Made by a program: the position numbers and the translations under genes. A stretch of 57,152 nucleotides of DNA from Minisyncoccia bacterium. GTDB taxonomy: Bacteria > Patescibacteriota > Minisyncoccia > Phycocordibacterales > DATDWN01. The DNA lies in assembly GCA_049297675.1 (NCBI GenBank), contig JBAQUS010000006.1:1-57152 (forward strand), written 5' to 3'. How positions within the stretch are numbered: position 1 is the stretch's first letter; each line of letters starts with the position of its first letter. Shown here piece by piece: positions 2,553-57,152 of this stretch. The notes under the pieces are model-generated. The model saw only the letters and a list, made by a program, of their open reading frames with translations. It did no database searches and was not told the origin of the DNA.

Positions 2553-2630
2553 GAATACAATGAGACGCAACGGCGCTGACTCCTTGTAAGCATATGGTTT
2601 CAGATCTATTTCACTGTCCTCATCGGACTT

Positions 2631-2667
<37 letters not shown>

Positions 2668-6972: not shown

Positions 6973-6979
6973 TTAGTTG

Positions 6980-7086
6980 CGATACCAATCTACGAATTCA
7001 TACGAATTTACGAATAGTTAGTTACCCTTACGAAACGCACATACGAATTATTCGTATCATTCGTTTTCATTCGTATATTGGTATCG
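6980..7086. repeat. ACGAAT-rich palindromic element, full copy, 7 nt upstream of the rplJ start
   Basis: CGATACCAATCTACGAATTCATACGAATTTACGAAT...ATTCGTTTTCATTCGTATATTGGTATCG, with terminal inverted repeats of about 18 nt. Confidence 0.85.
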
Positions 7087-7228
7087 TGTTATATTTTTTC
7101 GACCTAAGGTAAAGTCCGAAAATAGTATTTCGTCTCGATCGGAAATTAAGTTCAACATATTGAGCACCGATTGTCTTTGACCTTATAACAAGAGAATATA
7201 CCAAAAAAGAGTTGGTGTCAATTATTCG

Positions 7229-8137: not shown

Positions 8138-8361
8138 AAATAAAAATCTAAAATTTTGGTGAAATTTCAGATTTGGATGAAATTCGACGCGAGAAGTTTT
8201 AAAATGTGAGAAGCCTTACATATCGTAAGGTGACGAGCATTTTAAAACTTGTAGCTAGAAGTTCGCCAAATCTGGAATTTCATACAACAAAAAACCACCT
8301 CTTTCGAAGTGGTTTTTTGCTTTAGGTTACTCTTTAAGTAAACCCTTACTTAACCTAAGTA

Positions 8362-16222: not shown

Positions 16223-16269
16223 TGATTGGTGGATATATTTAATTGATAAATAATAACAAACAACAATGA

Positions 16270-16391
16270 ATCCCGTTAGAAACCGCGGTCGCTAGTAAAA
16301 TTATTAGCAATATGTTAGAAAATTATTAAATAATTAATATAGGAACGGGGAAGTGGTTAAAATTTGACCGCGACCTGTTTCTAAACGGGAT
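16270..16391 (+). repeat. CCCGTTAGA-family element (122 nt) ending on the recA start codon
   Basis: ATCCCGTTAGAAACCGCGGTCGC...GACCGCGACCTGTTTCTAAACGGGAT followed by G, flanked by ATGAA on both sides. The ssb copy is near-identical. Confidence 0.85.
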
Positions 16392-20714: not shown

Positions 20715-20829
20715 CCCGTTTAGAAACAGGTCGCGGTCTGGTAAGACCACTTCCCCGTCCCTATTATTAATTACTTATAACCTAACATATACCAATTAAT
20801 TTTCAAGCGACCGCGGTTTCTAACGGGAT
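20713..20829 (-). repeat. CCCGTTAGA-family element (117 nt) ending on the ssb start codon
   Basis: Reverse strand reads ATCCCGTTAGAAACCGCGGTCGC...GACCGCGACCTGTTTCTAAACGGGAT followed by G. It is flanked by ATGTAT on both sides. Same subfamily and same orientation relative to the gene as the recA copy. Confidence 0.85.
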
Positions 20830-20868
20830 ACATGGTATTTGTAAAGTTAAAAGTTTATAAAGTGGATA

Positions 20869-23683: not shown

Positions 23684-23690
23684 ATAAGTG

Positions 23691-23822
23691 CGACACTAAT
23701 CCACGAATTCATGCGAATGATACGAGGTTAGATACCCTTGACGAATGGGCATACAAATTTATTTGTAATATTCGTATGCAATTCGTATATTGGTATCGCT
23801 TCATATTCGTAATTCGTGTCGA
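23691..23822. repeat. ACGAAT-rich palindromic element (composite copy) 7 nt upstream of the metG start
   Basis: CGACACTAATCCACGAATTCATGCGAATGATACGAGGTTAGATACCCTTGACGAATGGGCATAC...ATTCGTATATTGGTATCG plus an extra arm ATTCGTAATTCGTGTCG. Confidence 0.8.
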
Positions 23823-26269: not shown

Positions 26270-27595
26270 CTAAGAAAGACTGGTTCGAACAAAAAGGATG
26301 ATTTCGTCTACACTCATTCTTTTTTGTTCGCCTGTATCTCTATCCCTAACAGTTACTCCAGCGTCCTTCTCTATAGTCTCAAAATCGACAGTGACACACC
26401 AGGGTGTGCCGATCTCATCTTGTCTTCTATACCTCTTCCCAATATTTCCGTTGTCATCGAAAACCACAGCCCCGAATTCTTTTTTCAGTTGTTTGTAAAT
26501 TTCCCTAGCTTTCTCAACCAATTCCGGTTTGTTTTTAAGCAAAGGAAAAACCGCAATTTTTACTGGAGCAAGTTTGGGAACAAATTTTAGATAAGTTCTC
26601 ACCTCACCACCAAGAAAATCCTCTGTGTAGGCATCACATAATACGGCAAGAACCGTCCTATCCACCCCAAGAGAAGGCTCTATTACATGTGGAATATACC
26701 TTTCATTTGTTTCTTCATCAAAATATGATAAATCAACACCAGAGGTTGATGAATGAGCTTTTAAATCAAAATCTGTTCTATAAGCAAGCCCGTATAATTC
26801 TTTCTTTCCAAAAGGGTAATCAAATTCAATATCAACTGTTTTTTTTGAATAGTGTGCTCTGTTTTCTGGTAAACATTCACACTCATGAATATGAGATCTA
26901 TTCAAGCCAATTTCTTCACACCACTTAAATAATAGTGCCAACCACTCGTCAAAATATTTTTCCCATCCAGAATGGTTAATAAAATATTCAACCTCCATTT
27001 GTCTAAACTCACGGGAACGAAAAACGAAGTCTCTTGGAGCAATCTCATTTCTGAATGCTTTTCCAATTTGAGCTAAACCAAATGGTATTTTGGGATGAAC
27101 AGAATCAAGCACATTTTTAAAATTAACAAACATTCCTCCGGCAGTTTCTGGACGTAAATAGGAGATCGAGTCTTTATCCTCTAGTACACCAATGTGGGTC
27201 TTGAACATCATATTAAACTGTTCTTCATTTCCCAACTTGCCTCCACAATCAGGACACTTATTTTTATCTTCTAGATGATCAGCCCTAAAACGATGATGAC
27301 ATTTTTCGCATTCAACAAGAGGGTCAGCAAATCCAGATACATGACCACTTGCTTCCCATGCTTTCGGATTCATCAATATTGCAGCATCAACACCATACAT
27401 ATCCTCCCTATCAGAGACAAACATCTTCCACCAAAGATTTTTTATATTATTAGCTAGTTCTGCCCCATAAGGACCGTAATCCCATGTACCAGAAAGCCCA
27501 CCGTAAATCTCCGAACCTTGAAAAACAAAACCTCTACGCTTGCAAAGCGAGACTATTTTTTCTAGCAAATCATTTTTCTCCTCTTTTTTTGTCAT
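26270..27595 (-). CDS. glyQS: glycyl-tRNA synthetase (class II, alpha2 type)
   Basis: 441 aa with RGFVFQGSEIYGGLSGTWDYGPYG and class II motifs. Confidence 0.95.
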   Translation of the reverse strand: MTKKEEKNDLLEKIVSLCKRRGFVFQGSEIYGGLSGTWDYGPYGAELANNIKNLWWKMFVSDREDMYGVDAAILMNPKAWEASGHVSGFADPLVECEKCHHRFRADHLEDKNKCPDCGGKLGNEEQFNMMFKTHIGVLEDKDSISYLRPETAGGMFVNFKNVLDSVHPKIPFGLAQIGKAFRNEIAPRDFVFRSREFRQMEVEYFINHSGWEKYFDEWLALLFKWCEEIGLNRSHIHECECLPENRAHYSKKTVDIEFDYPFGKKELYGLAYRTDFDLKAHSSTSGVDLSYFDEETNERYIPHVIEPSLGVDRTVLAVLCDAYTEDFLGGEVRTYLKFVPKLAPVKIAVFPLLKNKPELVEKAREIYKQLKKEFGAVVFDDNGNIGKRYRRQDEIGTPWCVTVDFETIEKDAGVTVRDRDTGEQKRMSVDEIILFVRTSLS

Positions 27596-34134: not shown

Positions 34135-35856
34135 TTACATTTTTTCTGGAACTTTAATAGCAAGAAGACTTAGCCCATCAGTCATAACCTGAGCAAAAGC
34201 CTTAGTTATGTAAAGCTTGTAAGACGATACTGGATCATTTTCGTCTATTATTTTCCCACTTGCATAAAAACTATTAAACTCCCCGGCTAACTCTGTCAAA
34301 TATGTCACTAAGTAGTGTGGAGCATATTCCCTACCCGCTTTCTCTACCACAGAGAAAAATCTCTCTAAATATCTCTCCAGATTTGTTGTCTTCCAATTCT
34401 CAGGTACTTCGGCTACTGCCTCAGTATCTCCAGCACCATTAGTGCTTTCGACTTTTTTCAAAATTGAATTTGCGCGAACTGCAGAATACTGAAGATACGG
34501 TCCGGAGTCACCCTCAAATGAAATAGACTTTTCAAAATCAAAGACAATGTCTCCTCCTATAGCCTGACGAAGTATTGAGTACTTTATTGCACCTATCGCC
34601 ACAATCTCTGCCAACTCCTCAATGTCAAGGGTGCCCCTTGGCATTTCGTCCCTATTTTTCATCTTATCTAAAACTTTGGTTTTTACTTGATCAATTAAAT
34701 CTTCTGCAGAAATGATTGTGCCTGTTCGAGATGACATTTTTCCACTTGGAAGTTTTAGAATACCATGAGAGAGATGATGGAGCTTCCTTTTAAGTTCTGG
34801 AAACACTTCTCCAATAGCTACTTCGACTACCTTGAAAAATGAATCCTGTTCATTTGCTGTAACTGTTATCGATTTGTCATAGTCAAACCAATCTTTCTTT
34901 ATTTGAGCCAAGCCTAACTCTTTTGCCTCGTATGTCGGCAATCCTTCGGAGTTCAGAAATACTCTTGTATGAGTTTTTGGCTCAAAATTCTCACCTTTAA
35001 AAATTATTGGCACTCTTTTTATCCCGTTAGAAACAGACTCTTCCTTAGAGTCGCCGTTTCGCACGGGATCGCCCTTTTCAAAAATACGACCAATATTTTC
35101 TCTGACTAATTCCTGCCCGATTTCGCCACTTTCACTTTCAAAAAAATGGAAGTCGAAATGACTATCAAGTCTTTTATAAAGAGCCTCAAAACCCTCAAGT
35201 GATTTTTGCCTACCATCTTCGTAAATCTCACTAATTTCTGGATCTGATTCCTCGTATATTTTTTTATTGATTTCTAGTATTTCAACTTTAGCTTTCTCAT
35301 TTTCCTCGAACTCTTTATAACCAAAAGCATAAGCTACCTCTAAATTCTTGCCTGCTTTTATTGCCCAAACTGCCATAGCAATGTGAAGACCAACATCTCC
35401 GTGATACGAGGCTACTTGTATTTCTGCACCATTTGCTTTTAGAATTCTCGAAACAGATTCTCCAATGCAGTTACCCATAAGATGTCCTATATGAAATTCT
35501 TTAAATGGATTCGGTTGTGAGTGCTCAAAAAATATCTTTTGGCCCTTAAAAATTTTTCCTTCAAATTTCTTACCTATTTCATCCTTAAAATAATTTGCAT
35601 CAAAAAAGAAGTTCAAAAATCCCGGTCTAGCTATATTTATAGCCGTTTGTGGAAGACGGTCTTCCACAAATTGGGATTTTATATTTTCGGCGAGGTCGAG
35701 GGGTTTTTTACCAAGCTCTTTTGCATACACCATGGCAACATTTGTTGAATAATCCCCCATTTCAATATGAGTTGGATAATCCAAAACAACCTTAGGATCT
35801 TTTACTCCTGACTCTTTTAGAATTTCAATTATTTTTTGTATTATTTCTTCTTTCAT
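34135..35856 (-). CDS. argS: arginyl-tRNA synthetase
   Basis: SQPNPFKEFHIGHL (HIGH) and a C-terminal DALR anticodon-binding region. The start is placed at MKEEIIQ, abutting the repeat element. The gene contains an in-frame 49-nt repeat copy. Confidence 0.95.
   Translation of the reverse strand: MKEEIIQKIIEILKESGVKDPKVVLDYPTHIEMGDYSTNVAMVYAKELGKKPLDLAENIKSQFVEDRLPQTAINIARPGFLNFFFDANYFKDEIGKKFEGKIFKGQKIFFEHSQPNPFKEFHIGHLMGNCIGESVSRILKANGAEIQVASYHGDVGLHIAMAVWAIKAGKNLEVAYAFGYKEFEENEKAKVEILEINKKIYEESDPEISEIYEDGRQKSLEGFEALYKRLDSHFDFHFFESESGEIGQELVRENIGRIFEKGDPVRNGDSKEESVSNGIKRVPIIFKGENFEPKTHTRVFLNSEGLPTYEAKELGLAQIKKDWFDYDKSITVTANEQDSFFKVVEVAIGEVFPELKRKLHHLSHGILKLPSGKMSSRTGTIISAEDLIDQVKTKVLDKMKNRDEMPRGTLDIEELAEIVAIGAIKYSILRQAIGGDIVFDFEKSISFEGDSGPYLQYSAVRANSILKKVESTNGAGDTEAVAEVPENWKTTNLERYLERFFSVVEKAGREYAPHYLVTYLTELAGEFNSFYASGKIIDENDPVSSYKLYITKAFAQVMTDGLSLLAIKVPEKM
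35031..35079. repeat. CCCGTTAGA-family mini element (49 nt) in frame inside argS
   Basis: ATCCCGTTAGAAACAGACTCTTCCTTAGAGTCGCCGTTTCGCACGGGAT is translated as DPVRNGDSKEESVSNGI. Same architecture as the spacer copy at 3450-3497. Confidence 0.75.
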
Positions 35857-35973
35857 CCCGTTAGAGATAGGAAACATTAGTTTCCGTAATTAATTTGGCT
35901 ATATAATTTAAATTACTAATATTAAGAATATACATCTTTTTTTAAAAAACAACTGGGTGATCTCTAACGGGAT
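35855..35973 (-). repeat. CCCGTTAGA-family element (119 nt) ending on the argS start codon
   Basis: Reverse strand reads ATCCCGTTAGAGATCACC...AATTAATTACGGAAACTAATGTTTCCTATCTCTAACGGGAT followed by G, with ATGAA on both flanks. Confidence 0.85.
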
Positions 35974-36932: not shown

Positions 36933-37280
36933 TTATCTATTGTCACCATCTCCTCTTAATACACCACGTTCTTTTCTTGAGTTTAATTTTTCCATATTTG
37001 CCTTAGCAACTTCTTCGAGACTAAGTCCCAGATCATGCGACAAAACAGCCAAATACCACATAACATCTCCTAGCTCAAGTTTTATTGACTCTTTTCTCTC
37101 ATCAGTTATTCCTCCATCACCATCATCACCTCGGAGCCATTTTTTGATTTTACCCATTACTTCTCCCACCTCATCACCTAATCCAAATGCTGGATAAATA
37201 ATATTGTACTTTGGTGGATTAACCCTAAGTGGAACAGCCCATTTTTGATATTCGTTTAATTGCATAATTTTTATTTTCAT
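36933..37280 (-). CDS. MazG-like all-alpha nucleoside triphosphate pyrophosphohydrolase
   Basis: 115 aa with GLGDEVGEV...KLELGDVMWYLAVLSHDLGLSLEEVAKANMEKLNSRKERG. Confidence 0.8.
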   Translation of the reverse strand: MKIKIMQLNEYQKWAVPLRVNPPKYNIIYPAFGLGDEVGEVMGKIKKWLRGDDGDGGITDERKESIKLELGDVMWYLAVLSHDLGLSLEEVAKANMEKLNSRKERGVLRGDGDNR

Positions 37281-37398
37281 CCCATTAGAGATAGGAAATC
37301 AAAGATTTCCGTAATTAATTGATAAATTTGTATATAACCACATTACTCTAGCATTATTACATGATCTCGAAAATGAATTTTTTGATCTCTAACGGGAT
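37279..37398 (-). repeat. CCCGTTAGA-family element (120 nt) between glyA and the mazG-like gene
   Basis: Reverse strand reads ATCCCGTTAGAGATCAAAAAA...AATTAATTACGGAAATCTTTGATTTCCTATCTCTAATGGGAT followed by G. The 5' repeat contains the glyA stop codon, and the 3' repeat supplies the AT of the mazG-like ATG. Confidence 0.85.
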
Positions 37399-38582
37399 AA
37401 ACTTCTTAAGATTTTATCAATCTTTCGAGCAATATTCACAAAATCTTTTTCCTTTTTTCCTCTGGTGGTTTCAGCCGGAGAGCCGAGCCGTATTCCAGAT
37501 GGATCCATTGATGAACGTTTCTCACCTGGAATGGTGTTTTTGTTTACGATTATGCCAGCTTTCTCAAGCCTATCACTAGCCTCTTTTCCGGAAATTCCCT
37601 TCGCATCCATCCAAGTATCGACCAAAATGAGATGGGAGTCAGTCCCACCAGATACCACTCGCCAGCCTAATCTGGATAACTCATTGGCAAGAGCTTTAGC
37701 ATTTTTGATTACCTGCTTGGCATATTTTTTAAAGGCAGGACTGTCGGCTTCTTTTAAAGCCACTGCCACAGCCGCTATTTGATTTAAATGTGGACCTCCC
37801 TGAAGTCCGGGAAAAACTGCTCTGTCTATTTTTTTAGCTATTTCTCTATTTGGTTCTCTCTCGTCAATTTTGGAGAATATCATGGCAGAGCGAGGACCAC
37901 GAAGTGTTTTATGAACTGTTGTTGTAACAACATCAGCATATTTGAAAGGACTGTCATATACTCCACCCGCAACCAAGCCTGCAAAGTGTGACATATCTAC
38001 CATAAGAATTGCCCTGCAAGAATCTGCAATTTCTCTGAATTTCTTGAAATCAACTTTTCTTGGATAAGCTGTAAAACCGCAAACAATAATATTCGGTTTC
38101 TCACTTTCTGCAATTTTTTTCAGTTCTGGATAATTTATTACTTCTGTTTTTGCATCAACTCCAAAAGGCACTTGTATCCAAGCTTTACCTGTCATTGAAA
38201 CTTTGAAACCGTGAGTTAAATGGCCCCCATCTTGCAAATTCATTCCCATAATTTTCCCGCCAAGCGGTACTAGCCCCAAATAAACTGCCAAATTTGCCGG
38301 GGAGCCAGAAAGTGGTTGAACATTTACATGCCACTTATCTTTTGAGAGTTTGAAAAGTTTAAGAGCCCGAGTTTTTGCGAGATTCTCAATTTTGTCGACA
38401 ATTTCGTTTCCACCGTAGTACCGGGCTCCCGGATACCCCTCTGCATATTTATTTGTCAGCTCCGACCCAAGTGCCTCTAAAACATCTTTTGATACAAAAT
38501 TTTCCGAGGCAATAAGATTTATGACACCTTTCTGTCTTTTTTTCTCCTCATCTATTAGTTTTTTGATTTCCTTGTCTTTCAT
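37389..38582 (-). CDS. glyA: serine hydroxymethyltransferase
   Basis: 397 aa with NLIASENFVS, the PLP-lysine context TTTVHKTLRGPR and GIRLGSPAETTRG. Confidence 0.95.
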   Translation of the reverse strand: MKDKEIKKLIDEEKKRQKGVINLIASENFVSKDVLEALGSELTNKYAEGYPGARYYGGNEIVDKIENLAKTRALKLFKLSKDKWHVNVQPLSGSPANLAVYLGLVPLGGKIMGMNLQDGGHLTHGFKVSMTGKAWIQVPFGVDAKTEVINYPELKKIAESEKPNIIVCGFTAYPRKVDFKKFREIADSCRAILMVDMSHFAGLVAGGVYDSPFKYADVVTTTVHKTLRGPRSAMIFSKIDEREPNREIAKKIDRAVFPGLQGGPHLNQIAAVAVALKEADSPAFKKYAKQVIKNAKALANELSRLGWRVVSGGTDSHLILVDTWMDAKGISGKEASDRLEKAGIIVNKNTIPGEKRSSMDPSGIRLGSPAETTRGKKEKDFVNIARKIDKILRSLSR

Positions 38583-38839
38583 CCCGTTAGAGATAGGAAA
38601 CCTCTCAAGCGATTCTTGAGATAACGTTTACCCATACCAGTTTTTAAATATATCTCTCTTATTCTAGCATCATGATCATCCAAGCATGCTTCATAATATA
38701 TCACTTCGAATGGTTTATCTCTTCTGGTAAAGGTTGATTTCCCTTCGTTATGTTGCTTGAGACGTTTCCGAAGGTCATTTGTACTACCTGTGTACAATCT
38801 ACCATTTTTCTTACTTTTTAATATGTAGGTGTATATCAT
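38579..38839 (-). CDS. GIY-YIG domain nuclease (small YhbQ/COG2827-like type)
   Basis: 86 aa with IYTYILKSKKNGRLYTGSTNDLRKRLKQHNEG...YYEA....A..RE..LK. The stop TGA overlaps the glyA ATG (ATGA). Confidence 0.85.
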   Translation of the reverse strand: MIYTYILKSKKNGRLYTGSTNDLRKRLKQHNEGKSTFTRRDKPFEVIYYEACLDDHDARIREIYLKTGMGKRYLKNRLRGFLSLTG

Positions 38840-42087: not shown

Positions 42088-42633
42088 TTAGGTTTTTTTG
42101 ACCTGTAAGAAGTCGAGCTCCACTGGTGTCTCTCTACCAAACATTGCAACTAGTACTTTTACCTTCCCTCTCTCTTCATCCACTTCTGAAACTTTGCCTT
42201 CCAAGTCTTTAAACGGTCCATCAATAATTTTGACTGCATCATTTATTGAAAGATCTATCTTATGCTTTACATCCCCAGCGTTCATCCTACTGAAAAGCTC
42301 ATCTATCTCTTTTTTGTCAATTGGCACCGGGTAAACACCAGAGCCGACAAAACCAGTGACACGAGGAGTATTTCTGACAACATACCAAGAGTCTTCCGTA
42401 ACTATCATGTCAACTAATATGTATCCAGGATAAATTTTCTCCTCCTCTTCAACCCTTTTTCCACCTTTTATTTTTATTTTCTTCTCAGTAGGAACTATGA
42501 CGTTGAAAATCTTGTCCTCCATTCCAAGAGATTCTATACGCTGTTTGAGATTACGCATAACAGCATTCTCGTACCCAGCGTATGTGTGAACGACATACCA
42601 ATTCCTTCCGCTTTGTATTTGTTGTTTAGACAT
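42088..42633 (-). CDS. nusG: transcription termination/antitermination factor NusG
   Basis: 181 aa with an NGN domain (WYVVHTYAGYENAV) and a KOW domain (VKIIDGPFKDLEGKVSEVDEERGKVKV). Confidence 0.95.
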   Translation of the reverse strand: MSKQQIQSGRNWYVVHTYAGYENAVMRNLKQRIESLGMEDKIFNVIVPTEKKIKIKGGKRVEEEEKIYPGYILVDMIVTEDSWYVVRNTPRVTGFVGSGVYPVPIDKKEIDELFSRMNAGDVKHKIDLSINDAVKIIDGPFKDLEGKVSEVDEERGKVKVLVAMFGRETPVELDFLQVKKT

Positions 42634-42642
42634 ATTTTATAT

Positions 42643-42751
42643 GATACCAATCTACGAATTTATGCGAATGAAACGAATGTTAGATACACTTAACGAATAG
42701 GGCATACGAATCCATTCGTATAATTCGTATGTAATTCGTATATTTGTATCG
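42643..42751. repeat. ACGAAT-rich palindromic element, full copy, between secE and nusG
   Basis: GATACCAATCTACGAATTTATGCGAATGAAACGAATGTTAGATACACTTAACGAATAGGGCATACGAAT...GTAATTCGTATATTTGTATCG. Near-identical to the reverse complement of the copy at 46095-46234. Confidence 0.85.
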
Positions 42752-42761
42752 CTAAATCTTA

Positions 42762-42941
42762 TTAAATAATAAATTTCTCCAAAACCAATTTCAAAAGATA
42801 ATCAAAAAAACCGAGATAAAAAGAAACGAAAACAGAAATGATAACAACAACCACAGTGAAAGCCATGGCCTGATTTCTTGTTGGCCAAGAAACATGCTTC
42901 AGCTCTCCTTGGGTGTCTTTGATGTATGATATAAGTGACAT
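42762..42941 (-). CDS. secE: preprotein translocase subunit SecE (59 aa)
   Basis: Manual translation gives MSLISYIKDTQGELKHVSWPTRNQAMAFTVVVVIISVFVSFYLGFFDYLLKLVLEKFII. It has the canonical ELK.V.WPTR motif and sits upstream of nusG. It falls below the ORF-track cutoff. Confidence 0.75.
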   Translation of the reverse strand: MSLISYIKDTQGELKHVSWPTRNQAMAFTVVVVIISVFVSFYLGFFDYLLKLVLEKFII

Positions 42942-42954
42942 AAATTTATTCTAT

Positions 42955-43052
42955 CACGACACCAATACACGAATGAAGACGAACGTACGAATGGGTTCAG
43001 AATTCTGAATTCAATTCGTGTCATTCGAGTATTTATTCGTAATTCGTGTCGC
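42955..43052. repeat. ACGAAT-family element (CACGAAT variant) upstream of secE
   Basis: CACGACACCAATACACGAATGAAGACGAACGTACGAATGGGTTCAGAATTCTGAATTCAATTCGTGTCATTCGAG...ATTCGTAATTCGTGTCG. Confidence 0.75.
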
Positions 43053-45205: not shown

Positions 45206-46067
45206 ATATTCCTGCGGTTAAAAGCCTATGGGTGTTTGTTTCCTTGATAGATAACTCTCCACACGCTGTCTTACCTCCTAAATCTTTTGTTAAATCCTCT
45301 AAAACTTGTTTGTAAGTCTCGGCAGAGTAGTTCGAAGCATAGCCGTTTAAAACTATTGCTATCGGATCTTTTGATAAAACACTTTTAACTCTTTTTAGAA
45401 AAGGCAAAAGATCATTTTCTATTTTCCATACTTCCTTTTTGACGCCCTTTCCATACACTGGAGGATCGAGAAGTATGACGTCGTACTTGTTTCCTCGCTT
45501 TATTTCTCTTTCAACAAACTTTCTAACATCATCCACAATAAACCTAACGGGTTTTTCCTCTAATCCGGAATCTTTTAAATTCTTTCTTGCCAGATCCACC
45601 GCAAATTTAGACGAGTCAATATGGTAGACCTCTGCCCCAGCCCTCGCGCAAGCCATCGTAGCCCCACCAGTGTACGCAAAAAGATTTAGAACTTTGATCC
45701 TATTCGTATTATTCGCATGAATTCGTATATTTGTATCGCGTTTAATCTTCCCCTCAAGCCACTTCCACTGCCCTACCTGTTCTGGAAAGACTCCGAGGTG
45801 TTTAGAGGGCAAAAGTGATACATTAAAAGTCAGTTCTTCTAAGGTTATTTGCCAATTTTCTAATGGCTTTAACCATTTACCAGAAGCACCCGAACGAACG
45901 TAAGTTGAATCAGCCCCTTCCCATTCTTTTTTGGAAAGTGACTTTGCCCACAAAACTTGTGGATCGGGTCTACGCAAAACATACTGTCCGTATCTCTCGA
46001 GCTTCTCTCCTTCTCCACTATCTAGCAGTTCGTAGTCTTTTGATTTTTCAGTTACTAGAATTTCCAT
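45186..46067 (-). CDS. class I SAM-dependent (RlmI/YccW-like) methyltransferase with in-frame repeat insertion
   Basis: 293 aa with VLNLFAYTGGATMACARAGAEVYHIDSS and ILLDPP. The 15 residues RDTNIRIHANNTNRI are encoded by an ACGAAT half element. Confidence 0.8.
   Translation of the reverse strand: MEILVTEKSKDYELLDSGEGEKLERYGQYVLRRPDPQVLWAKSLSKKEWEGADSTYVRSGASGKWLKPLENWQITLEELTFNVSLLPSKHLGVFPEQVGQWKWLEGKIKRDTNIRIHANNTNRIKVLNLFAYTGGATMACARAGAEVYHIDSSKFAVDLARKNLKDSGLEEKPVRFIVDDVRKFVEREIKRGNKYDVILLDPPVYGKGVKKEVWKIENDLLPFLKRVKSVLSKDPIAIVLNGYASNYSAETYKQVLEDLTKDLGGKTACGELSIKETNTHRLLTAGIFARWFI
45697..45740. repeat. ACGAAT-rich element, half copy, in frame inside the methyltransferase gene
   Basis: GATCCTATTCGTATTATTCGCATGAATTCGTATATTTGTATCGCG is the reverse complement of the arm consensus CGATAC.AATATACGAATTCATGCGAAT.ATACGAAT. 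Confidence 0.8.
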
Positions 46068-46094: not shown

Positions 46095-46234
46095 GCGATA
46101 CGAATATACGAATGTCATACGAATACTACAAATGTAAATACACTTACGAAAAGTGCATGCTAATATTCGTATGCCCTATTCGTTAAGGGTATCTAACATT
46201 CGTATCATTCGCATAAATTCGTAGATTGGTATCG
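46095..46234. repeat. ACGAAT-rich palindromic element, full copy, upstream of the methyltransferase start
   Basis: GCGATACGAATATACGAATGTCATACGAAT...ATTCGTATGCCCTATTCGTTAAGGGTATCTAACATTCGTATCATTCGCATAAATTCGTAGATTGGTATCG. Confidence 0.85.
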
Positions 46235-46237
46235 TGA

Positions 46238-46762
46238 TTAAATACCACTTACTAAAAAAGAAACTTGTCTCTCCCTGTCGTGATCAAGTTCAACTAACAT
46301 AATCTCTTGCCATCTGCCTTTTAGAATTTTTCCCTCATTTACTATTAGTGTAACGCTGGGATGGATCATCAACGCCTGAGCATGAGCATGACCGTTTATG
46401 CACTCGTTTATCACCCCGTTTTCATCAGGTTCGCAAAGATGTGTGTTTCGCTTGCCGTTTTTATTTTCTGCATGAGCAATATCGTTATGTCCGTAATCAT
46501 GCATCGGATCGGCAAAATTATCCAAAACCTTTCTGAGATCTGATATGTACCCAAGTTCCTCTGATGGACCGATCAAATTTTTCTCATTTTCGTTAACCCA
46601 AATTCCACAGGTTGTATGATGACACTGTATCAAAATTGAACCCCTCTTTATTCCAGACTTTTTTATAACCTCTTCGACATCAGAAGTAATAGTAATGAAC
46701 TCCGCTCTAAAACGAGTTTGGTATTTTTTAGTTTCCAAATGTGTATGATATTCTCCTGTCAT
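46238..46762 (-). CDS. YjbQ/UPF0047-family protein
   Basis: 174 aa with ILIQCHHTTCGIWVNENE and NGHAHAQALMIHPSVTLIVNEGKILKGRWQEIMLVELD. Confidence 0.75.
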   Translation of the reverse strand: MTGEYHTHLETKKYQTRFRAEFITITSDVEEVIKKSGIKRGSILIQCHHTTCGIWVNENEKNLIGPSEELGYISDLRKVLDNFADPMHDYGHNDIAHAENKNGKRNTHLCEPDENGVINECINGHAHAQALMIHPSVTLIVNEGKILKGRWQEIMLVELDHDRERQVSFLVSGI

Positions 46763-48866: not shown

Positions 48867-49511
48867 CTAGAGTGGCAACTTTTCATTTTTTCTTTTTTTA
48901 AAATAAGCATAAACTAATCCAGAGAGTATGAGTATAAAAACTATTAATTGGATAATTGACTCAATCGATTCAGAACTGTGAATGATGTCCCCTAGAACCG
49001 AAAGCCCCGCGTAACCAAAATATATGTAGAGAAAATCCCGAACTATAGAACCTAGAAAAGTAGAAACGACAAAAATCTTAAGTGGTATTTTTAAAACACC
49101 ACTTCCTATTGAAACAACCGAACTCGGCACAATCGGTATTGCTCTCATAAAAAACATGATCAGATAGTCTTTTGTCTTGCCAGTAAACTTTTTCCCAAAT
49201 GACTCAATATCGGCATGACTTACACCAAAGAATTTCTCCATTACCCCAGAAAAATAGTCTTCTATTTTATCTGCCAAATAATAAACAACCAGTGACCCGA
49301 GAAGTTTACCCAAAGACCCTAGAATGGTTAAAAGAAACAGATAGGATATTCCCCTACCTTGAACGGAGGCCAAAGATCCTGTGACAGTCATTATGATAGG
49401 AGATGGAATAGGAGCTATTATTTCCTCAACAATTGATGCAAAAAAAGTAAAAAACTCCAGAGGGACTGTTTTTGCAAGTAAAATAAGTGAGTTTTCTATG
49501 TTTGTAAACAT
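48867..49511 (-). CDS. DedA-family membrane protein
   Basis: Start set at MFTNIENS because the 15 upstream ORF codons overlap tRNA-Leu. Multi-pass membrane protein with the DedA/SNARE-associated pattern. Confidence 0.75.
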   Translation of the reverse strand: MFTNIENSLILLAKTVPLEFFTFFASIVEEIIAPIPSPIIMTVTGSLASVQGRGISYLFLLTILGSLGKLLGSLVVYYLADKIEDYFSGVMEKFFGVSHADIESFGKKFTGKTKDYLIMFFMRAIPIVPSSVVSIGSGVLKIPLKIFVVSTFLGSIVRDFLYIYFGYAGLSVLGDIIHSSESIESIIQLIVFILILSGLVYAYFKKRKNEKLPL

Positions 49512-49599
49512 TGGTGCTCGGGAGAGGACTCGCACCTCCACGCCCTTAACGGGCACAAGAACCTCAATCTTGCTTGGCTACTAATTACAACACCCGAGC
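49512..49599 (-). tRNA. tRNA-Leu (GAG), CCA encoded
   Basis: GCTCGGGTGTTGTAATTAGTAGCCAAGCAAGATTGAGGTTCTTGTGCCCGTTAAGGGCGTGGAGGTGCGAGTCCTCTCCCGAGCACCA. It has a 7-bp acceptor stem, the anticodon stem CAAGA/TCTTG with loop TTGAGGT, and a long variable arm. Confidence 0.85.
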
Positions 49600-50274
49600 A
49601 TATTTTTTTTGTTGTTGTCTTTCAACACTGAGAGCTTTTTGAATTTTTATTTTCTTTCTTGAAAGACATTTAACACGCGGATTATAGTACATATTTCGGA
49701 TAATGACTATGGCTTCTTTTTTTGCATATTTAAGCTGTAAGGTAGATTTCTTTCCATCACTAGTAATATGTCCTATTACTCTCAGTCTATCATTTAGTTC
49801 TTTCTGTAACCAAACAATGTGTTTTTTACTCGCCGAAACAAACTCAATGTAAAACATGTGGCTTGATCTCCATCTAGGATCCCAATAAGAATAAAATGTC
49901 CCATCACCATCAAAACATCCACGCAGATAGTCAAAGAAATATTTATCTGGAATAGTCACTGCCCCTATAATTTTAGATTTAGCTTGACTCAGTCCAATTG
50001 AAACAAGAAAGTTGTAAAAAATAATATCTCCAAATTGAATATGATAATACTCTTTCTTTTTTGATGGACCTCTAGATTTTAGTCCACTTTTTACTTTTAA
50101 ACCTAAACATTGTTTAAAATTGTCTGCTTGCTCTTTGTCCTTAGTTGTAAGACTCATATGTCTTTTGTCGTTATACAAGCAACCATCTGTAACCAAAAGA
50201 CCTATAGCATACGCAAAATTAGAAGACCATTTGATTTTTATCTTCCCCATTGGTTTAGGACCTCTTTTACCCAT
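49585..50274 (-). CDS. LAGLIDADG homing endonuclease (double-motif), free-standing
   Basis: 229 aa with two LAGLIDADG motifs, FAYAIGLLVTDGCL and FDYLRGCFDGDGTF. The last 5 codons overlap the 5' end of tRNA-Leu. Confidence 0.85.
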   Translation of the reverse strand: MGKRGPKPMGKIKIKWSSNFAYAIGLLVTDGCLYNDKRHMSLTTKDKEQADNFKQCLGLKVKSGLKSRGPSKKKEYYHIQFGDIIFYNFLVSIGLSQAKSKIIGAVTIPDKYFFDYLRGCFDGDGTFYSYWDPRWRSSHMFYIEFVSASKKHIVWLQKELNDRLRVIGHITSDGKKSTLQLKYAKKEAIVIIRNMYYNPRVKCLSRKKIKIQKALSVERQQQKKYARVL

Positions 50275-53262: not shown

Positions 53263-54912
53263 TCACACTTGTATCGAGAAATTATAAGAAGTTACAATTT
53301 CTCTATCAAGTATGCTCTCGTAGCTCAATGGATAGAGTAGAGCTCTTCTAAGGCTTTGATGTTGGTTCGATTCCAACCGAGAGCACAAAATAGGACTTCG
53401 GTCAGTTTCAGAAAAAGAAATCGGGGAAATCACGGCGGATTCGTTTTGCCGAACGGCAAAACGGGCAAGGGTGGTCTGGGCGAATTCGTATTCTGGTTTC
53501 CAAATCCAAGAGGGGGATTTTTCGGAAATGAGGCGGTTCGTTCCAATTTTTTGAACAAACTCCGATATCTCTCCAAGAGATTCCGCAGAAGCAATTTTTT
53601 CCGCTTGAGTTAAGGTTTTTATGTATTCTCTGGCTGGTTCGATCCAGCTACTGACATGCTTCCGCAGAAGCGACTCCTTTTCATTTTTGAGAGATATTTT
53701 TTGCTCGACAAACTGACTCTTTTTCGTGCGATATGTGTCCTCATCAATCAAATTGTCTAAATAACCACTGACCAGTTTGTCGAGCTTTTCATCTATCAAA
53801 AATATTTTCTTTGAGATCGCTTCTGCAGAAACATTAGCTGACTTAGTTTCTTTCTTTTCTTCAATATCGAGCATGGTATGTAATTCACGTGTCCAATTAG
53901 CCGGTAAAGCGATCGTCAGCGATTTTTCTATGATTTTCCTTTTCAAATCATTTTCTTGCATATACTTCTCGCTACACTCTCCGTGCTTCCTTGTGCAACG
54001 ATAATATCTGTAAGTGCCACCATTACCATGTGTCCACTGTGCCGTAATCATCGAGCCACATGAACAATGGAATAATCCGACAAAAGGAAAATCATGTTTT
54101 GATTTGGTTTTGCGAGGTCTGCTTCTCTCTCGCAAAACTTCCGCAACTTTTGTAAATAATTGTTTTGTAATAAGTGGCTGGAATTTTCCTTCATACGCTT
54201 CACCATTCCACATCATCACGCCCATATATAATTCATTACAAAGAAAATGTTCAATGGCGAAATTAGATTTTGTTTTTCCATCGGTTAATTTAGCAAAATA
54301 TTCGGCGATACTGTTAAAGGTATGAGTTCCAGTGGCGTATTCGGCAAAAACCTTTTTAACAATTTTGGCTTCTCTCGGCTCTGGTACAATATTGCGAAGT
54401 CTGTGGTCGTAAATATATCCAAACGGTTTTTGTCCTGGCCATCCGCCCTGTCGAAGTTTGGCTCGATTGCCACGCTTCACATTCTCTGACAGATTGTCTA
54501 TGTAATATTTGGCATTTGATAATCCGATAGAGAGAAAGAATTTGCCAGACGGCGTATTATCAAAAGCAAAAGTGGGAAATTTCAAATCAGCTAGTTTGCC
54601 AGTGTCTAGTAGATAAATCAAACGCCCACCATCTACTGAATTACGAGACAATCTGTCTGGGTTCCACGAAAGAATACCAAACTGATGAGGAAGACCAGCA
54701 TCTAATTTGTTGAGCATGGTGTTAAATACTTCACGACCAGGAACTTTGGCTGTTTTCTTTTCAATAAAAGTTTCCACAATTTCAATATGCTCACGCTCGG
54801 CAAATTCTTTCAGCTCGGTGTGTTGCGATTCCAAACTCAAAACTTGGCGATCTTCCTCATCAGTGGATTTGCGAATGTAGAGAAAATATTTTAGTGGTGT
54901 TTGATTGTTCAT
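53263..54912 (-). CDS. large serine recombinase (phage-integrase/transposase type)
   Basis: 549-aa ORF with the N-terminal resolvase catalytic domain (YIRKSTDEEDRQVLSLESQ...NPDRLSRN), a recombinase domain and a Cys-rich zinc ribbon (CSCGSMI...YYRCTRK...C). The last ~40 codons read antisense through tRNA-Arg, so the functional C-terminus is uncertain. Confidence 0.9.
   Translation of the reverse strand: MNNQTPLKYFLYIRKSTDEEDRQVLSLESQHTELKEFAEREHIEIVETFIEKKTAKVPGREVFNTMLNKLDAGLPHQFGILSWNPDRLSRNSVDGGRLIYLLDTGKLADLKFPTFAFDNTPSGKFFLSIGLSNAKYYIDNLSENVKRGNRAKLRQGGWPGQKPFGYIYDHRLRNIVPEPREAKIVKKVFAEYATGTHTFNSIAEYFAKLTDGKTKSNFAIEHFLCNELYMGVMMWNGEAYEGKFQPLITKQLFTKVAEVLRERSRPRKTKSKHDFPFVGLFHCSCGSMITAQWTHGNGGTYRYYRCTRKHGECSEKYMQENDLKRKIIEKSLTIALPANWTRELHTMLDIEEKKETKSANVSAEAISKKIFLIDEKLDKLVSGYLDNLIDEDTYRTKKSQFVEQKISLKNEKESLLRKHVSSWIEPAREYIKTLTQAEKIASAESLGEISEFVQKIGTNRLISEKSPSWIWKPEYEFAQTTLARFAVRQNESAVISPISFSETDRSPILCSRLESNQHQSLRRALLYPLSYESILDREIVTSYNFSIQV
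53314..53385 (+). tRNA. tRNA-Arg (TCT)
   Basis: GCTCTCGTAGCTCAATGGATAGAGTAGAGCTCTTCTAAGGCTTTGATGTTGGTTCGATTCCAACCGAGAGCA folds as a cloverleaf with anticodon loop CTTCTAA. The last 6 nt lie inside the left 162-bp inverted repeat. Confidence 0.9.
53380..53541. repeat. left arm of 162-bp inverted repeat (includes the recombinase 3' coding end and the last 6 nt of tRNA-Arg)
   Basis: Reverse complement of 55000-55161 with about 5 mismatches and no indels seen. Confidence 0.9.
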
Positions 54913-54999
54913 GGCGATAGGATTTTAATTAGTATAGCAAAAACTGCTTCTTCAAAAAATTGGAAACAAAACTTATTTTTGTAATTTGCTTTACAAATG

Positions 55000-55161
55000 A
55001 CGAACCGCCTCATTTCCGAAAAATCCCCCTTTTGGATTTGGAAGCCAGAATTTGAATTCGCCCAGACCACCCTTGCCCGTTTTGCCGTTCGGCAAAACGA
55101 ATCCGCCGTGATTTCCCCGATTTCTTTTTCTGAAACTGACCGAAGTCCTATTTTGTGCTCT
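55000..55161. repeat. right arm of 162-bp inverted repeat, upstream of the recombinase gene
   Basis: ACGAACCGCCTCATTTCCGAAAAATCCCCC...CCTATTTTGTGCTCT. It encodes a near-copy of the recombinase C-terminal ~54 residues on the plus strand. Confidence 0.9.
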
Positions 55162-55431
55162 TTAATTAACTTTGCTCGAACCTATTTTAGCAAGAATGTG
55201 TGAGTAATGTAAGTGGTAACTCTGACAATGAATTCCGTCACGGCATCGCTACACACTCCACGACACGCCCGAAGGCGAGTCCTTCCGTGTTTCGCTCTGC
55301 CGTACCGCCCTCATCCCCATCGCTTTCCATTCTGGTTTTGTTTGCGCGGGATTTCCTTTTTCGGAATGGGCGATTGGGCTTCGGGCAATGATTACTTAAA
55401 AAGTATAATAAAAAAGTAAAAACTTTATATT

Positions 55432-55475
55432 AAAAAGACCCCGTGCAGAGATCGTACATTTCTGCACGGGGTCTC
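55432..55475 (-). terminator. rho-independent terminator of the G+C-rich membrane protein gene
   Basis: Reverse strand reads GAGACCCCGTGCAGAAATG...CTCTGCACGGGGTC followed by TTTTT. Confidence 0.7.
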
Positions 55476-55495
55476 TATCGGGGTCATGTCCGAGA

Positions 55496-56296
55496 CTAGC
55501 GGAAGAGCGACTTGGCTCCAGCGATTTGCATCACGCGGACAGTGATGATTTCGTAGTTCAGTACGCCGAGAAGTGCCCCAGCGGTTGCGCCAATCAGGGC
55601 GTTTCCACTGAAATAGCCGACGGCTGTACCGAGTGCTGCATCCACCGCACACAGAAGCCGAAGCTCTGAATGGATGAGGCGGAAAAGTGTTGCAGTGAAT
55701 TTACAAATGCCGACCAGCACTCCAATCACGAAATTGACTGCGATGGGAGTTGCTACCACCAACCCTCGGATGAACTTCGGCAACTCTTCAGTTGCCATCA
55801 AGTTGCAGTACTTGAAGAAGTTTGGGAAATCCGCTGAGGTGACGACATGCGAATTCCTCCAGTCATTTCTTTCACGATTTCTGATGACTCCGGACATGCT
55901 GGCACTTGCGGACATCAAGCCCATGAAGACACCCATCGCAAAAGAAATTGCGATTTGCATCATGATGACCCTCGTCAGACTCATCGTGCTGCTCAACCAC
56001 GTAAGTGGTGCTGCAAACAAACCAATGGTCATCAGAATGTTGAAACCGGCGTTGAAGAATTCACAAAAAACCTTCCTCCAGCAGAACCAGTACTCACTAT
56101 CCGGTCTCCACGAAGTGGTCCTTCGGTAAGCAACCGGAATGGCCAACACGATCTCCTCGATGTTGTATCCGAGGTAAGCCACGAACGCGCCAACAATGGC
56201 GCCAACGGGCCAGCCAATGGTTCCAATCTGGAGAGCGATGATGCTCCCAATGAAAGCTCCGACGAAGCAGGCGAGTGCAATCTTTCTCGTTTCCAT
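55496..56296 (-). CDS. hypothetical multi-pass membrane protein (G+C-rich, island cargo)
   Basis: 266 aa with Gly/Ala-rich TM helices at both ends. It is preceded by GAGAGGAG and a consensus promoter. Confidence 0.6.
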   Translation of the reverse strand: METRKIALACFVGAFIGSIIALQIGTIGWPVGAIVGAFVAYLGYNIEEIVLAIPVAYRRTTSWRPDSEYWFCWRKVFCEFFNAGFNILMTIGLFAAPLTWLSSTMSLTRVIMMQIAISFAMGVFMGLMSASASMSGVIRNRERNDWRNSHVVTSADFPNFFKYCNLMATEELPKFIRGLVVATPIAVNFVIGVLVGICKFTATLFRLIHSELRLLCAVDAALGTAVGYFSGNALIGATAGALLGVLNYEIITVRVMQIAGAKSLFR

Positions 56297-56360
56297 TTAG
56301 CTACTCCTCTCAAGGTGCAGATTTCCAGCGAAAATCGCTGGACTTACGAACTCTAGTTGT

Positions 56361-56390
56361 ATTATACACCATAGTATAGTATTATGTCAA
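56361..56390 (-). promoter_or_regulatory. consensus sigma70 promoter for the membrane protein gene
   Basis: Reverse strand reads TTGACA, an 18-nt spacer, then TATAAT. Confidence 0.5.
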
Positions 56391-56529
56391 ATTTACGCGG
56401 AATTCAATCCTGGAAACATTATCACTAATATATTCCGATCTTAATTTGACATTAATACACCACTTGCTATACTAATGATACAAAGTGCCGAAAGGCTCCG
56501 AGAAACCCCGCAGAGATGCGGGATTTCGA

Positions 56530-56934
56530 TTACTCCAAAAATCCACTTAATTTAACTTTTATTTCCTTGAGATTATTTGACGAAATATCATACAATTTTC
56601 TTTTCAATCTTTTTACACTTACCAACTTTAATTGAGCAAGAATAACAGAAACTTTTTCTCCGTTTGGGTCAGTAAAATTGAAGTAAAAATCAAATTTCTT
56701 TTGTTTGGTCGAAAGTGAAGCACACCAAAACATGTGATTGTTAAACTTTTTAACAACGAGGATTGGTCTTGAAAAATTACTGCCACTACCGTTTTGTTCA
56801 AAGCCAATATTTTTACCTAGTGAACACATCCAAACTTCTCCTTCTTTTGGGAAATAATCTGGTTCACTGGTGTCAGACTGAATTTTCTTTTTCAGTTCGT
56901 TCCACAAGTCATATTCTTTATCATCATTGTTCAT
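56530..56934 (-). CDS. PemK/MazF-like toxin-fold protein, no adjacent antitoxin ORF seen
   Basis: 134 aa with GEVWMCSLGKNIGFEQNGSGSNFSRPILVV...CASLST...AQLKLVSVKRL, a pattern typical of the MazF/PemK SH3-like fold. Confidence 0.6.
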   Translation of the reverse strand: MNNDDKEYDLWNELKKKIQSDTSEPDYFPKEGEVWMCSLGKNIGFEQNGSGSNFSRPILVVKKFNNHMFWCASLSTKQKKFDFYFNFTDPNGEKVSVILAQLKLVSVKRLKRKLYDISSNNLKEIKVKLSGFLE

Positions 56935-57051
56935 TTTGCTATCTTCTCAAATTATCACAAAAATCTCAACTACCAGTATTTCTAGTTTGAAGCTCGAAGC
57001 GTAACCAGTAATAGACCGTTTGTGTATGTACTGGACCCCATTCTTTAGACA

Positions 57052-57152
57052 CTAATTCTGTATCTGTATTTTAGTATTTTGAGCGAAAATTGTAAACTCA
57101 ATCGGTGACATTTTAAGTGCTGTATGTATTCTCTTGTGGTTGTAGATGTAAA
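57052..57152 (-). mobile_element. 3' end of an rve (DDE integrase-core) transposase gene, truncated by the window edge
   Basis: Reverse-strand translation gives YIYNHKRIHTALKMSPIEFTIFAQNTKIQIQN followed by a stop. YNxxRxHxxL..SP.EF is the characteristic C-terminal end of IS3/IS481-type rve transposases. Confidence 0.5.

Follow-up and report, generated by a model that had tools for sequence, protein, structure and literature searches.

Introduction

What does a large serine recombinase (LSR) gene do between two long inverted copies of its own 3′ end, one of which abuts a tRNA gene? The question is raised by a 57,152-nt stretch of DNA from Minisyncoccia bacterium (Patescibacteriota; Phycocordibacterales; DATDWN01), namely positions 1–57,152 of contig JBAQUS010000006.1 in assembly GCA_049297675.1. 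We call this whole stretch the window. Toward its right end, an LSR gene is bracketed by a 162-bp inverted repeat, one arm of which is fused to the 3′ end of tRNA-Arg(TCT). An earlier, sequence-only reading of the locus offered three explanations, as follows: (a) a self-inverting segment that swaps the C-terminal tail of the recombinase, (b) a 1.8-kb mobile unit with terminal inverted repeats (TIRs) that inserted at the tRNA 3′ end, and (c) the scar of a past inversion. The reading that we favour, with moderate confidence, is that the locus is a small tRNA-targeting integrative element of Patescibacteria with two inverted copies of its attachment junction, and that its LSR gene lies in an invertible cassette at tRNA-Arg.

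The LSR has 2931 homologues at E ≤ 1e-10. GTDB species representatives hold 589 loci with LSR relatives, and of the 80 kept nearly all are from Patescibacteria. The relative loci scanned were 80 from GTDB species representatives and 80 from JGI metagenomes, with self-BLAST and ARAGORN applied to every locus; the named relatives in both scans are nearly all Patescibacteria (the candidate phyla radiation, CPR). Divergence within the LSR family reaches down to 40% protein identity. As to a phage origin, IMG/VR gave only 4 weak or partial matches. Counts of the layout refer to 80 non-redundant loci with a complete LSR gene and sufficient flank, and the junction analysis to 72 non-redundant loci aligned on the tRNA discriminator. 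L-numbers denote relative loci or contigs and P-numbers homologous LSR proteins. B and B′ are the arms of the inverted repeat, which hold the LSR 3′ end; A and A′ are copies of a pseudo-tRNA arm; and J1 and J2 are the cores at the tRNA/arm and A′/B′ junctions.

The Inverted Repeat at tRNA-Arg

The features of the locus are as follows.

53314–53385, plus strand: tRNA-Arg(TCT), intact; attB-type target half-site (ARAGORN, 53314–53386; Rfam RF00005, 53314–53385, 68.3 bits).
53383–53385, unstranded: J1 core, acceptor nt 71–72 plus the discriminator; putative crossover window at the tRNA/arm junction.
53380–53541, unstranded: left arm B, the recombinase-side half-site beside the core; codes for LSR residues ~458–511 on the minus strand.
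53542–54999, unstranded: unique segment between the arms, 1458 nt, putatively invertible; LSR body and its upstream region, with the equivalent segment in both orientations among relatives.
53263–54912, minus strand: LSR gene, 549 aa, the last 39 codons being antisense tRNA and upstream spacer; Pfam PF00239, PF07508 and PF13408.
54913–54999, minus strand: LSR upstream region; conserved TGCTATACT, extended −10-like, ~35 nt before the ATG, with the same motif in L001.
54997–55203, plus strand: orphan open reading frame (ORF), 68 aa, ending …SPILCSLINFARTYFSKNV.
55000–55161, unstranded: right arm B′, the orphan inverted copy of the LSR 3′ end and core; J2 core at 55156–55158.
55162–55420, unstranded: region A′, GC-rich and non-coding; its proximal end mimics a tRNA 3′ end; attP-type half-site.

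The repeat finder returned two arms of 162 nt that are 98% complementary, with 1458 nt between them. The near-perfect repeat described by the sequence-only reading thus stands, with a small correction to its estimate of about five mismatches: pairwise alignment matches 158 of the 162 positions, and the 4 mismatches all lie 108–131 nt from the outer end. The longest identical run between the arms is 108 nt. Since the runner-up inverted repeat in the whole 57-kb window is only 69 nt long, a repeat of 162 nt is far beyond chance. The right arm ends 87 nt upstream of the LSR start codon, close to the 90 nt first noted, and TTAATTAAC comes next. The left arm opens, as had been read, with AGAGCA, which ARAGORN and Rfam place as acceptor nt 68–72 plus the discriminator of the tRNA. 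The T-loop of this tRNA, GGTTCG at 53364–53369, is 16–21 nt from the discriminator at 53385.

On the inner side, the repeat is bounded (53541/53542 and 54999/55000) exactly at (A)CGAACC, in the codons for the invariant G-T/S-N-R of the LSR. The CGAACC at this boundary is T-loop-like.

Two contigs of metagenome-assembled genomes (MAGs) from NCBI, L180 and L181, match the window at 100% identity and in the same orientation, each stopping at exactly 57152; they were reached through the PemK-like toxin. No exact record of the window LSR was found. The part of the window present in a Logan contig, L182, is limited to 55357–57055. Because the same sequence and orientation occur in two MAG contigs at 100% identity, the repeat is not an artefact of one assembly. 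The sequence-only reading had raised the case that the right arm might be missing from independent assemblies; it is present in both of these contigs. The orientation seen in the window is one that can be assembled, because of the four mismatches between the arms.

The Recombinase and Its Tail

Judged by its domains and active-site motif, the protein is a bona fide LSR. It has the Resolvase, Recombinase and Zn_ribbon_recom domains of Pfam. The catalytic domain matches PF00239 over residues 10–158 (E = 2e-18), and the motif Y12-x-R14-K15-S16-T17-D18 is invariant across 32 homologues. A match to the PHROG 95 integrase spans residues 2–448, and the homology to phage integrases stops at 448. The AlphaFold model has a catalytic domain, an alpha-E helix, a recombinase domain, a zinc-ribbon domain, a coiled coil at 340–421 and helices to residue 456; strands at 289–306 are followed by the long helices 340–385 and 391–421. 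From residue 457 onward the confidence (predicted local distance difference test, pLDDT) is below 50, and the repeat begins at codon 458. That is, the structured LSR ends, at residue 456, at the inner boundary of the repeat. The sequence-only reading had placed the final 54 or so codons of the conserved recombinase within the arm. This has to be revised: since phage-integrase homology ends at 448 and AlphaFold confidence is low from 457, a tail is all that the arm encodes, one that is unstructured, poorly conserved and lineage-specific.

At the other side of the arm the ORF (53263–54912, minus strand) crosses tRNA-Arg antisense (…SRLESNQHQSLRRALLYPLSYES…), in agreement with the sequence-only reading. 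So does the orphan ORF at 54997–55203 agree with it, in that the orphan copy offers an alternative LSR C-terminus (…SPILCS-LINFARTYFSKNV), which would be gained if the cassette were flipped. Tails of the orphan-ORF class are present in homologues P0006, P0008, P0010, P0014, P0026, P0031, P0042, P0047, P0055 and P0100.

The conserved TGCTATACT lies within the cassette and is the probable LSR promoter, as its −10-like sequence suggests. With the probable promoter inside the cassette, the LSR would be expressed in either orientation. The upstream region also has a hairpin, TTTGTAATTTGCTTTACAAA, which adjoins the orphan arm; such a hairpin recurs in relatives with variable sequence. As a general rule an arm-adjacent hairpin does not hold: it is clear in one clade, but taken over all loci its stability does not significantly exceed that of the gene-side flank (Mann–Whitney p = 0.07). 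In another clade the gene carries a palindrome, ACGAACCC-nnn-GGGTTCGT, just before the arm. The inner-boundary motif with its adjoining hairpin or palindrome could be an accessory binding site.

Recurrence among Patescibacteria

The sequence-only reading suggested that the same recombinase be sought elsewhere, and there it is found in the same setting. An automated test was used in which a repeat of at least 50 nt must have one arm upstream of the gene and the other in its 3′ end. This strict test is passed by 63 of the 80 loci, and at least 12 of the other 17 show the repeat in the raw lists at other spacing. The arms of the relatives are 75–210 nt long and 92–100% identical, and the reading frame is open through the arm in 62 of the 63 loci. 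The 3′ arm adjoins the 3′ end of an antisense tRNA in 47 of these 63, and 23 anticodons are represented. Many contigs break off 50–300 nt upstream of the LSR gene, where such a repeat breaks assembly. The inverted-repeat layout is a family trait and not a one-off.

These counts bear on option (c) of the sequence-only reading, a one-off inversion scar, and on the related idea of an assembly artefact. Metagenome assemblers have a general tendency to make inverted joins, and nothing beyond this speaks for either idea. The identical sequence in independent MAG assemblies and the conservation of the layout in dozens of independent loci, from different pipelines and with 23 anticodons, make both scarcely credible.

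Within a locus the arms are 97–100% identical, whereas between close relatives arm identity is 84–95%. Because arms are more alike within a locus than between close relatives, recombination between them must be ongoing. A polarity of this homogenisation was not found: mismatches are fewer only in the outermost and innermost bins, as alignment ends would give anyway.

Junctions and the Pseudo-tRNA Arm

Arm B supplies the discriminator and the trailer, and so the tRNA stays intact. Of the 72 anchored loci, 47 have a repeat that stops exactly 2 nt beyond the tRNA discriminator, and in 21 it extends 3–6 nt beyond. In both arms, the nucleotides at the discriminator and the two acceptor positions change with the species of tRNA, for example C-GG for Ser, T-GA for Glu, T-GC for Gly, Tyr, Leu and Arg, and C-TG for Gln.

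The upstream arm is always followed, on its far side, by region A, which is conserved and non-coding and whose first 26 nt mimic a tRNA 3′ end in the anchored loci. In the window, the T-loop complement CGAACC of A′ is at 55177–55182, 21–26 nt from the discriminator-equivalent at 55156. This is 5 bp further out than in the tRNA. The consensus of the 72 anchored junctions has the tRNA half as GGA.TCGAACC at +11 to +21 (TCGAACC at +15 to +21) and the A half as cCgaAcC at +20 to +26. In serine integrases, the motif for the zinc-ribbon domain is likewise 5 bp further out in attP than in attB (PMC3783163). By this spacing, the outer halves of the tRNA and A junctions are a B-type/P-type pair that matches the published 5-bp shift; the test of the offset covered the outer halves. 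A clean attL/attP typing of whole junctions was tried and rejected, as the arm half-site is symmetric to the tRNA half at attB-type spacing.

A′ is conserved in L001, L097 and L099, which are at other tRNAs, and TTAATTAAAGAGCA of the window A end also occurs in relatives at tRNA-Tyr and tRNA-Val. The sequence-only reading took the AGAGCA of the right arm for a regenerated tRNA end. Its presence in the elements at tRNA-Tyr and tRNA-Val assigns it to the A end instead. That the window repeat extends 5 nt into the tRNA is owed to chance: the conserved A end (AAAGAGCA) matches the end of tRNA-Arg(TCT), …GAGAGCA. On these alignments, the repeat consists simply of the two B arms, B being the 3′-terminal part of the LSR gene.

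The inner (A′) and outer (A) junctions are identical only through the discriminator plus 1–6 nt, and the A and B repeats typically overlap by 4–9 nt. It follows from this overlap that the three junctions, tRNA/B, A′/B′ and A/host, share only a short core, and that the crossover is bounded to acceptor 71–72, the discriminator and the first trailer bases. The window and nearly all relatives retain an intact A/B junction on the upstream side of the LSR.

Folding of A′ gives z = −2.7 and −3.1 on the two strands. A structured RNA was considered for A and rejected: no Rfam family matches, and both strands fold equally well. Folding on both strands points to DNA palindromes. An alignment of 28 A sequences gave no consensus structure beyond the first ~40 nt. 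Between the gene for a 266-aa protein and A′ there is a palindrome with a 17-bp stem at 55436–55474, which resembles a terminator when read on the minus strand and seems to form the distal limit of A′; the terminator-like hairpin at 55437–55453 is just before A′.

Probable Inversion of the Cassette

Among the relatives, LSRs of both tail classes are met. After the conserved …SP(I/V)(L/W)C, 55 homologues have tails translated from antisense tRNA (DSNLRP, ESNQRP, ESNQ and others) and 11 have xLxxARTxF tails, in which ART is what the A-arm motif GCNCGAACC encodes. At 98.6% identity, P0100 and P0104 nonetheless belong to different tail classes. The flipped state, with a tRNA immediately upstream of the LSR on the same strand, is found in L051, L127, L137, L139 and L169. 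Between L162 and L169, from different metagenomes, two stretches match at 100% identity: the flank with tRNA-Asn, 6440 nt, in one relative orientation, and the LSR cassette, 1562 nt, in the opposite one. These two matches share exactly the 129-nt arm. In L011 and L114, the LSR reads into an A-type flank and the arms are only 89–90% identical, so that the orientation is resolved. From these comparisons we conclude that the cassette can probably flip. Option (a) of the sequence-only reading, a self-inverting segment with a tail swap, is accordingly the best supported of the three, with both tail classes, both orientations and the L162/L169 pair on its side; the inversion itself is read from assemblies.

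Two further sets of loci differ at the repeats. L173 (6349) and L174 (5440) are near-identical up to the arm/A end, after which L173 has tRNA-Asn and L174 another A-type flank. In L103, L104 and L105, a ~99% identical module of 2.05 kb is found at tRNA-Lys(ttt) and tRNA-Val(tac), with the left neighbours swapped. Each may be a real rearrangement at the repeats or a chimeric assembly.

A static cassette must also be considered. In this explanation, the orphan arm is a recombinase-binding operator or decoy for autoregulation, and the flipped forms in the databases are errors in assembly path. The orphan arm does end in the T-loop-like CGAACC and a hairpin right upstream of the LSR promoter region, the window is found in one orientation only, and identical arms make orientation ambiguous to an assembler. 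We nevertheless hold a static cassette to be improbable. The LSRs with an A-type flank in L011 and L114 have their orientation resolved by the divergence of the arms. The concerted evolution of the arms requires recombination between them, and an operator of 25 bp needs neither 162 bp nor an open reading frame.

Cargo and the Unit of Integration

Where at least 2 kb of upstream sequence was present, a second copy of A was looked for. In 33 loci there is such a copy, inverted, 98–330 nt long and 83–100% identical (≥92% in all but one), which encloses 727–7304 nt of variable, unrelated cargo. The overall layout in relatives is tRNA | B–LSR–B′ | A′–cargo–A | host. The cargo seen includes toxin–antitoxin genes, regulators, NUDIX hydrolases and a deformylase; no candidate gene for a directionality factor is conserved in it. 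In the window, the corresponding part is as follows.

55496–56934, minus strand: cargo side, with a 266-aa membrane protein (55496–56296) and a PemK/MazF-like toxin (56530–56934).

These genes are assigned as cargo by analogy with the 33 relatives that carry a second A copy. The MazF/PemK-like toxin gene has 218 nt left upstream of it, and no recognisable antitoxin is found there. MAG contigs L180 and L181 both stop at 57152, which suggests a repeat just beyond.

Comparison of close relatives bounds the mobile unit. L001 and L002 match at 99.4% over 8.8 kb that take in the cargo, and only their outer A junctions differ; in L002 this junction is joined to another B arm, 96% identical to that of the window. 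Close relatives at different tRNAs share B–LSR–B′ and 30–330 nt of A, ~1.75–2.1 kb in total. Such comparisons suggest that the cargo turns over quickly. Arrays also occur. L056 (1–15178) has three LSR cassettes alternating with cargo in an array that ends at tRNA-Ser; in L037 (4552–14874), one LSR is flanked on either side by A-type junctions, and another LSR follows further along; and L011 (1–5253) has two LSR genes, 83% identical and inverted, around a gene of 511 aa. The arrays fit an integration unit [A–cargo–A′|B′–LSR–B] and repeated integration at one tRNA, a behaviour also described for tycheposons. L148 is a 3-kb contig with terminal inverted repeats of 404 nt, made up of A and B to either side of the LSR; a circular or array-internal form would look like this.

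Some candidates for informative forms were set aside. Contigs of 4.3–5 kb were examined as circles, and P0004 and P0023 proved to be on ordinary chromosomal fragments. The search for an empty site by synteny yielded L105, which is syntenic with the window but too diverged, at 43–46% amino-acid identity. In L007, a perfect direct repeat of 489 nt (5658–6146 and 8149–8637) lies downstream of the tRNA-Lys target; either copy includes an ORF of 94 aa, and between them lies one of 526 aa for which no Pfam match is on record.

The size of the shared unit recalls option (b) of the sequence-only reading, in which the 1.8-kb segment between the arms is a complete element with TIRs, like an insertion sequence (IS), inserted at the 3′ end of tRNA-Arg. 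Parts of this option stand: the unit is mobile, its target is a tRNA 3′ end, and it supplies the discriminator and trailer. Many homologues are on contigs of 1.7–2.0 kb, some contigs start and stop in the arms (L086), and relatives at different tRNAs share only ~1.75–2.1 kb. Short contigs are, however, expected where assemblies break at repeats, and the arms are not the ends of what is shared. The shared DNA always runs 30–330 nt into A, commonly ~200–330 nt of it, as in the comparisons of the window with L001, L097 and L099, and the ~99% identical module of L103 and L105 includes 229 nt of A. Moreover, the outer flanks are not halves of one target, since one is a tRNA and the other a pseudo-tRNA with attP-type spacing. 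No direct target duplication is seen; the nucleotides common to the outer junctions belong to the inverted repeat. An IS-like transposon bounded by the arms is thus very unlikely.

Proposed Mechanism

We return to the tRNA-targeting integrative element with inverted junctions and propose that it works as follows. The free form would be a circle in which two inverted A/B junctions separate an LSR segment from a cargo segment, much as in the yeast 2-micron plasmid. The LSR cassette would come to lie in either orientation when the element integrates by one junction or the other, or when tRNA/B recombines in situ with A′/B′. A flip would leave the gene and its promoter whole and would swap only the unstructured C-terminal tail and the direction of read-out. 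The LSR itself is, in our view, the most likely catalyst of the flip: the two outer halves make a cognate B-type/P-type pair, and the inner halves do not differ. Because the same two sites are regenerated, the flip could run both ways without a directionality factor. Homologous recombination of the RecA type between the long arms is an alternative route and would probably keep the arms identical in any case.

Several observations weigh against this proposal. An attL-type and an attP-type site are not a pair on which canonical serine integrases act. The arm half-site beside the core looks symmetric to the tRNA half, so that the junctions are not cleanly attL/attP. Arms of 75–210 nt far exceed a half-site of 25 bp, which suggests that homologous recombination is at least as important as the LSR. 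The case for inversion is drawn from assemblies, and identical arms as long as the k-mer or longer leave the inner orientation unfixed in a de Bruijn graph; the flips and polymorphisms of L162/L169, L173/L174 and L103–L105 could in part be choices of path by the assembler. The window is seen in one orientation only, in the two contigs that span the repeat. Its outer A copy is absent, as the contig ends at 57152, and its cargo is assigned by analogy. No empty tRNA site, closed circle or unambiguous circular junction was found.

These points lead to an explanation in which the LSR has no part in flipping. An accidental ancestral duplication would be maintained by RecA gene conversion, with inversion as a neutral by-product. 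The arms exceed any LSR half-site and are homogenised over their full length, and the mismatches are spread along the whole arm, not confined to its inner part. In addition, canonical LSRs refuse pairings other than attP × attB (PMC3783163). A neutral duplication, on the other hand, would not persist in nearly all of a family that has diverged to 40% identity. Nor would it hold a sharp inner boundary at the same codons or keep the frame open in all but one of the 63 arms, and the outer junction halves form just the B-type/P-type pair that an LSR synapse needs. We therefore regard a role for RecA alone as doubtful, while giving it real weight.

It is tempting to go further than the element with inverted junctions requires. 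The locus might be a serine-integrase system without built-in directionality, in which a tRNA-type half-site is paired with a pseudo-tRNA half-site longer by 5 bp and the inner halves are identical copies of the end of the integrase's own gene. Integration, excision, tandem capture and inversion would then be one reversible reaction, the circle would isomerise, and the family could be retargeted to any tRNA gene. Retargeting would be possible because the core co-varies with the tRNA and the T-loop is universal. This wider scheme is tentative, and we consider it unlikely to be correct in full.

Relation to Known Systems

The type of enzyme and the tRNA-targeting integrative element are both known kinds. 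The LSRs of phages and elements such as A118/LI, phiC31, Bxb1 and SPbeta have the same domain set, a very short core crossover and the 5-bp offset of the outer motif (PMC3783163). In the present locus, by contrast, inverted half-site arms bracket the gene, and after integration the element still contains a whole element-type junction. The arms measure 75–210 bp, against ~25 bp in those systems; the target, the last 2–3 nt of many tRNAs, is recognised by way of the universal T-loop; the LSR gene extends at its 3′ end across the junction; and no directionality factor is evident. In the canonical systems, attP × attB recombination runs one way, and it takes a directionality factor to reverse it. 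A canonical LSR element, bounded by attL and attR, without an intact attP and with sites of 40–50 bp, is not what is found here.

In layout, and in layout only, the proposed circle is like the yeast 2-micron plasmid with its FLP/FRT system. Like the plasmid, the circle would have two long, identical inverted repeats that contain the targets and two unique segments, one with the recombinase, and its flip would keep the sites. FLP, however, is a tyrosine recombinase and the 2-micron plasmid a non-integrating nuclear plasmid of a eukaryote, whereas here the enzyme is a serine recombinase, the circle is a proposal, and one copy of the repeat is split at the tRNA.

Tycheposons and other tRNA islands also have a recombinase beside a tRNA 3′ end, variable cargo and tandem arrays, which are represented here by L056, L037 and L002. 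Tycheposons differ in having mostly tyrosine recombinases (910 of 937), direct partial-tRNA repeats and, often, replication genes. A direct partial-tRNA repeat at the distal end is not found here: only a core of 4–9 nt is shared, and A is a mimic with a 5-bp insertion. A full-text term search of the tycheposon preprint met "inverted repeat" only among the references.

The invertases Hin, Gin, Cin and Pin and the shufflons share with this locus a serine recombinase, a segment bounded by inverted repeats and the exchange of C-terminal coding ends. Those of the Hin group, however, are ~190 aa, have a C-terminal helix-turn-helix and 26-bp sites, depend on an enhancer and Fis, lie outside the segment and switch another gene (tail fibre, flagellin). 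Here, an integrase of ~510 aa (549-aa ORF) lies inside the segment, the tail that would change is its own and the arms are 162 bp; it does not belong to that group. A further likeness is to integration-dependent immunity in cluster G and N mycobacteriophages, in which an attachment junction lies in the 3′ end of a gene and the C-terminus depends on the DNA that is joined. In those phages it is the repressor gene that holds the junction, a tyrosine recombinase serves as integrase and the tail acts as a proteolysis tag of shown function, whereas here the tails are those of the LSR itself. As for IS-like transposons with TIRs, the relatives share DNA beyond the upstream arm and show no direct duplication, which sets the locus apart from them.

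What appears to be new is the combination of an integrase bracketed by inverted arms of its own site, an inverted element-type junction that is retained, a second repeat around the cargo, and use of the T-loop with a mimic shifted by 5 bp. Full-text literature searching found no published account of the layout, and none of these features was found described.

Other Features of the Window

The window starts inside a 23S rRNA gene (1–3289, minus strand), in which model positions 1–2096 are spread over 3289 nt. The gene has adjacent group I introns at 190–431 and 442–679 and further inserted sequence. A 23S rRNA gene with group I introns is a common feature of CPR genomes.

Dispersed ACGAAT/ATTCGT repeats of 40–70 nt (e.g., GATACCAATCTACGAATTTATGCGAATGAAACGAAT) are present in both orientations, mostly between genes, at 135–181, 1690–1749, 6951–7091, 23682–23812, 42633–42765, 42948–43007, 45701–45744 and 46116–46263. 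One pair, 42643–42711 and 46165–46233, is 97% complementary. Another motif, CATCCCGTTAGAGATAGGAAA, stands at the upstream ends of several minus-strand genes and may be a shared leader or regulatory element; it occurs at 27431–27481, 35825–35875, 37249–37299 and 38551–38601, and also at 3440–3479, 16263–16305, 20794–20836 and 37369–37408. At 48867–50274, two adjacent minus-strand ORFs of 229 aa flank tRNA-Leu(GAG) (49512–49599), and the product of the second has a faint LAGLIDADG_3 match in the MAG annotation.

Implications

Current rules for serine integrases do not anticipate a layout in which an inverted element-type junction is kept inside the element and the recombinase gene lies between the junctions. 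If the enzyme itself carries out the flip, it would be a natural bidirectional large serine recombinase. Recognition of the universal T-loop, together with a core of 2–3 nt that tracks the tRNA, suggests target rules that are simple and predictable.

For Patescibacteria, the repeats of the element explain why many MAG contigs break at these loci. The genomes of Patescibacteria are tiny and, to our knowledge, very few mobile elements have been recognised in them. Gene flux in this large share of bacterial diversity could run to a major extent through a small, abundant, tRNA-targeting element whose cargo is exchangeable.

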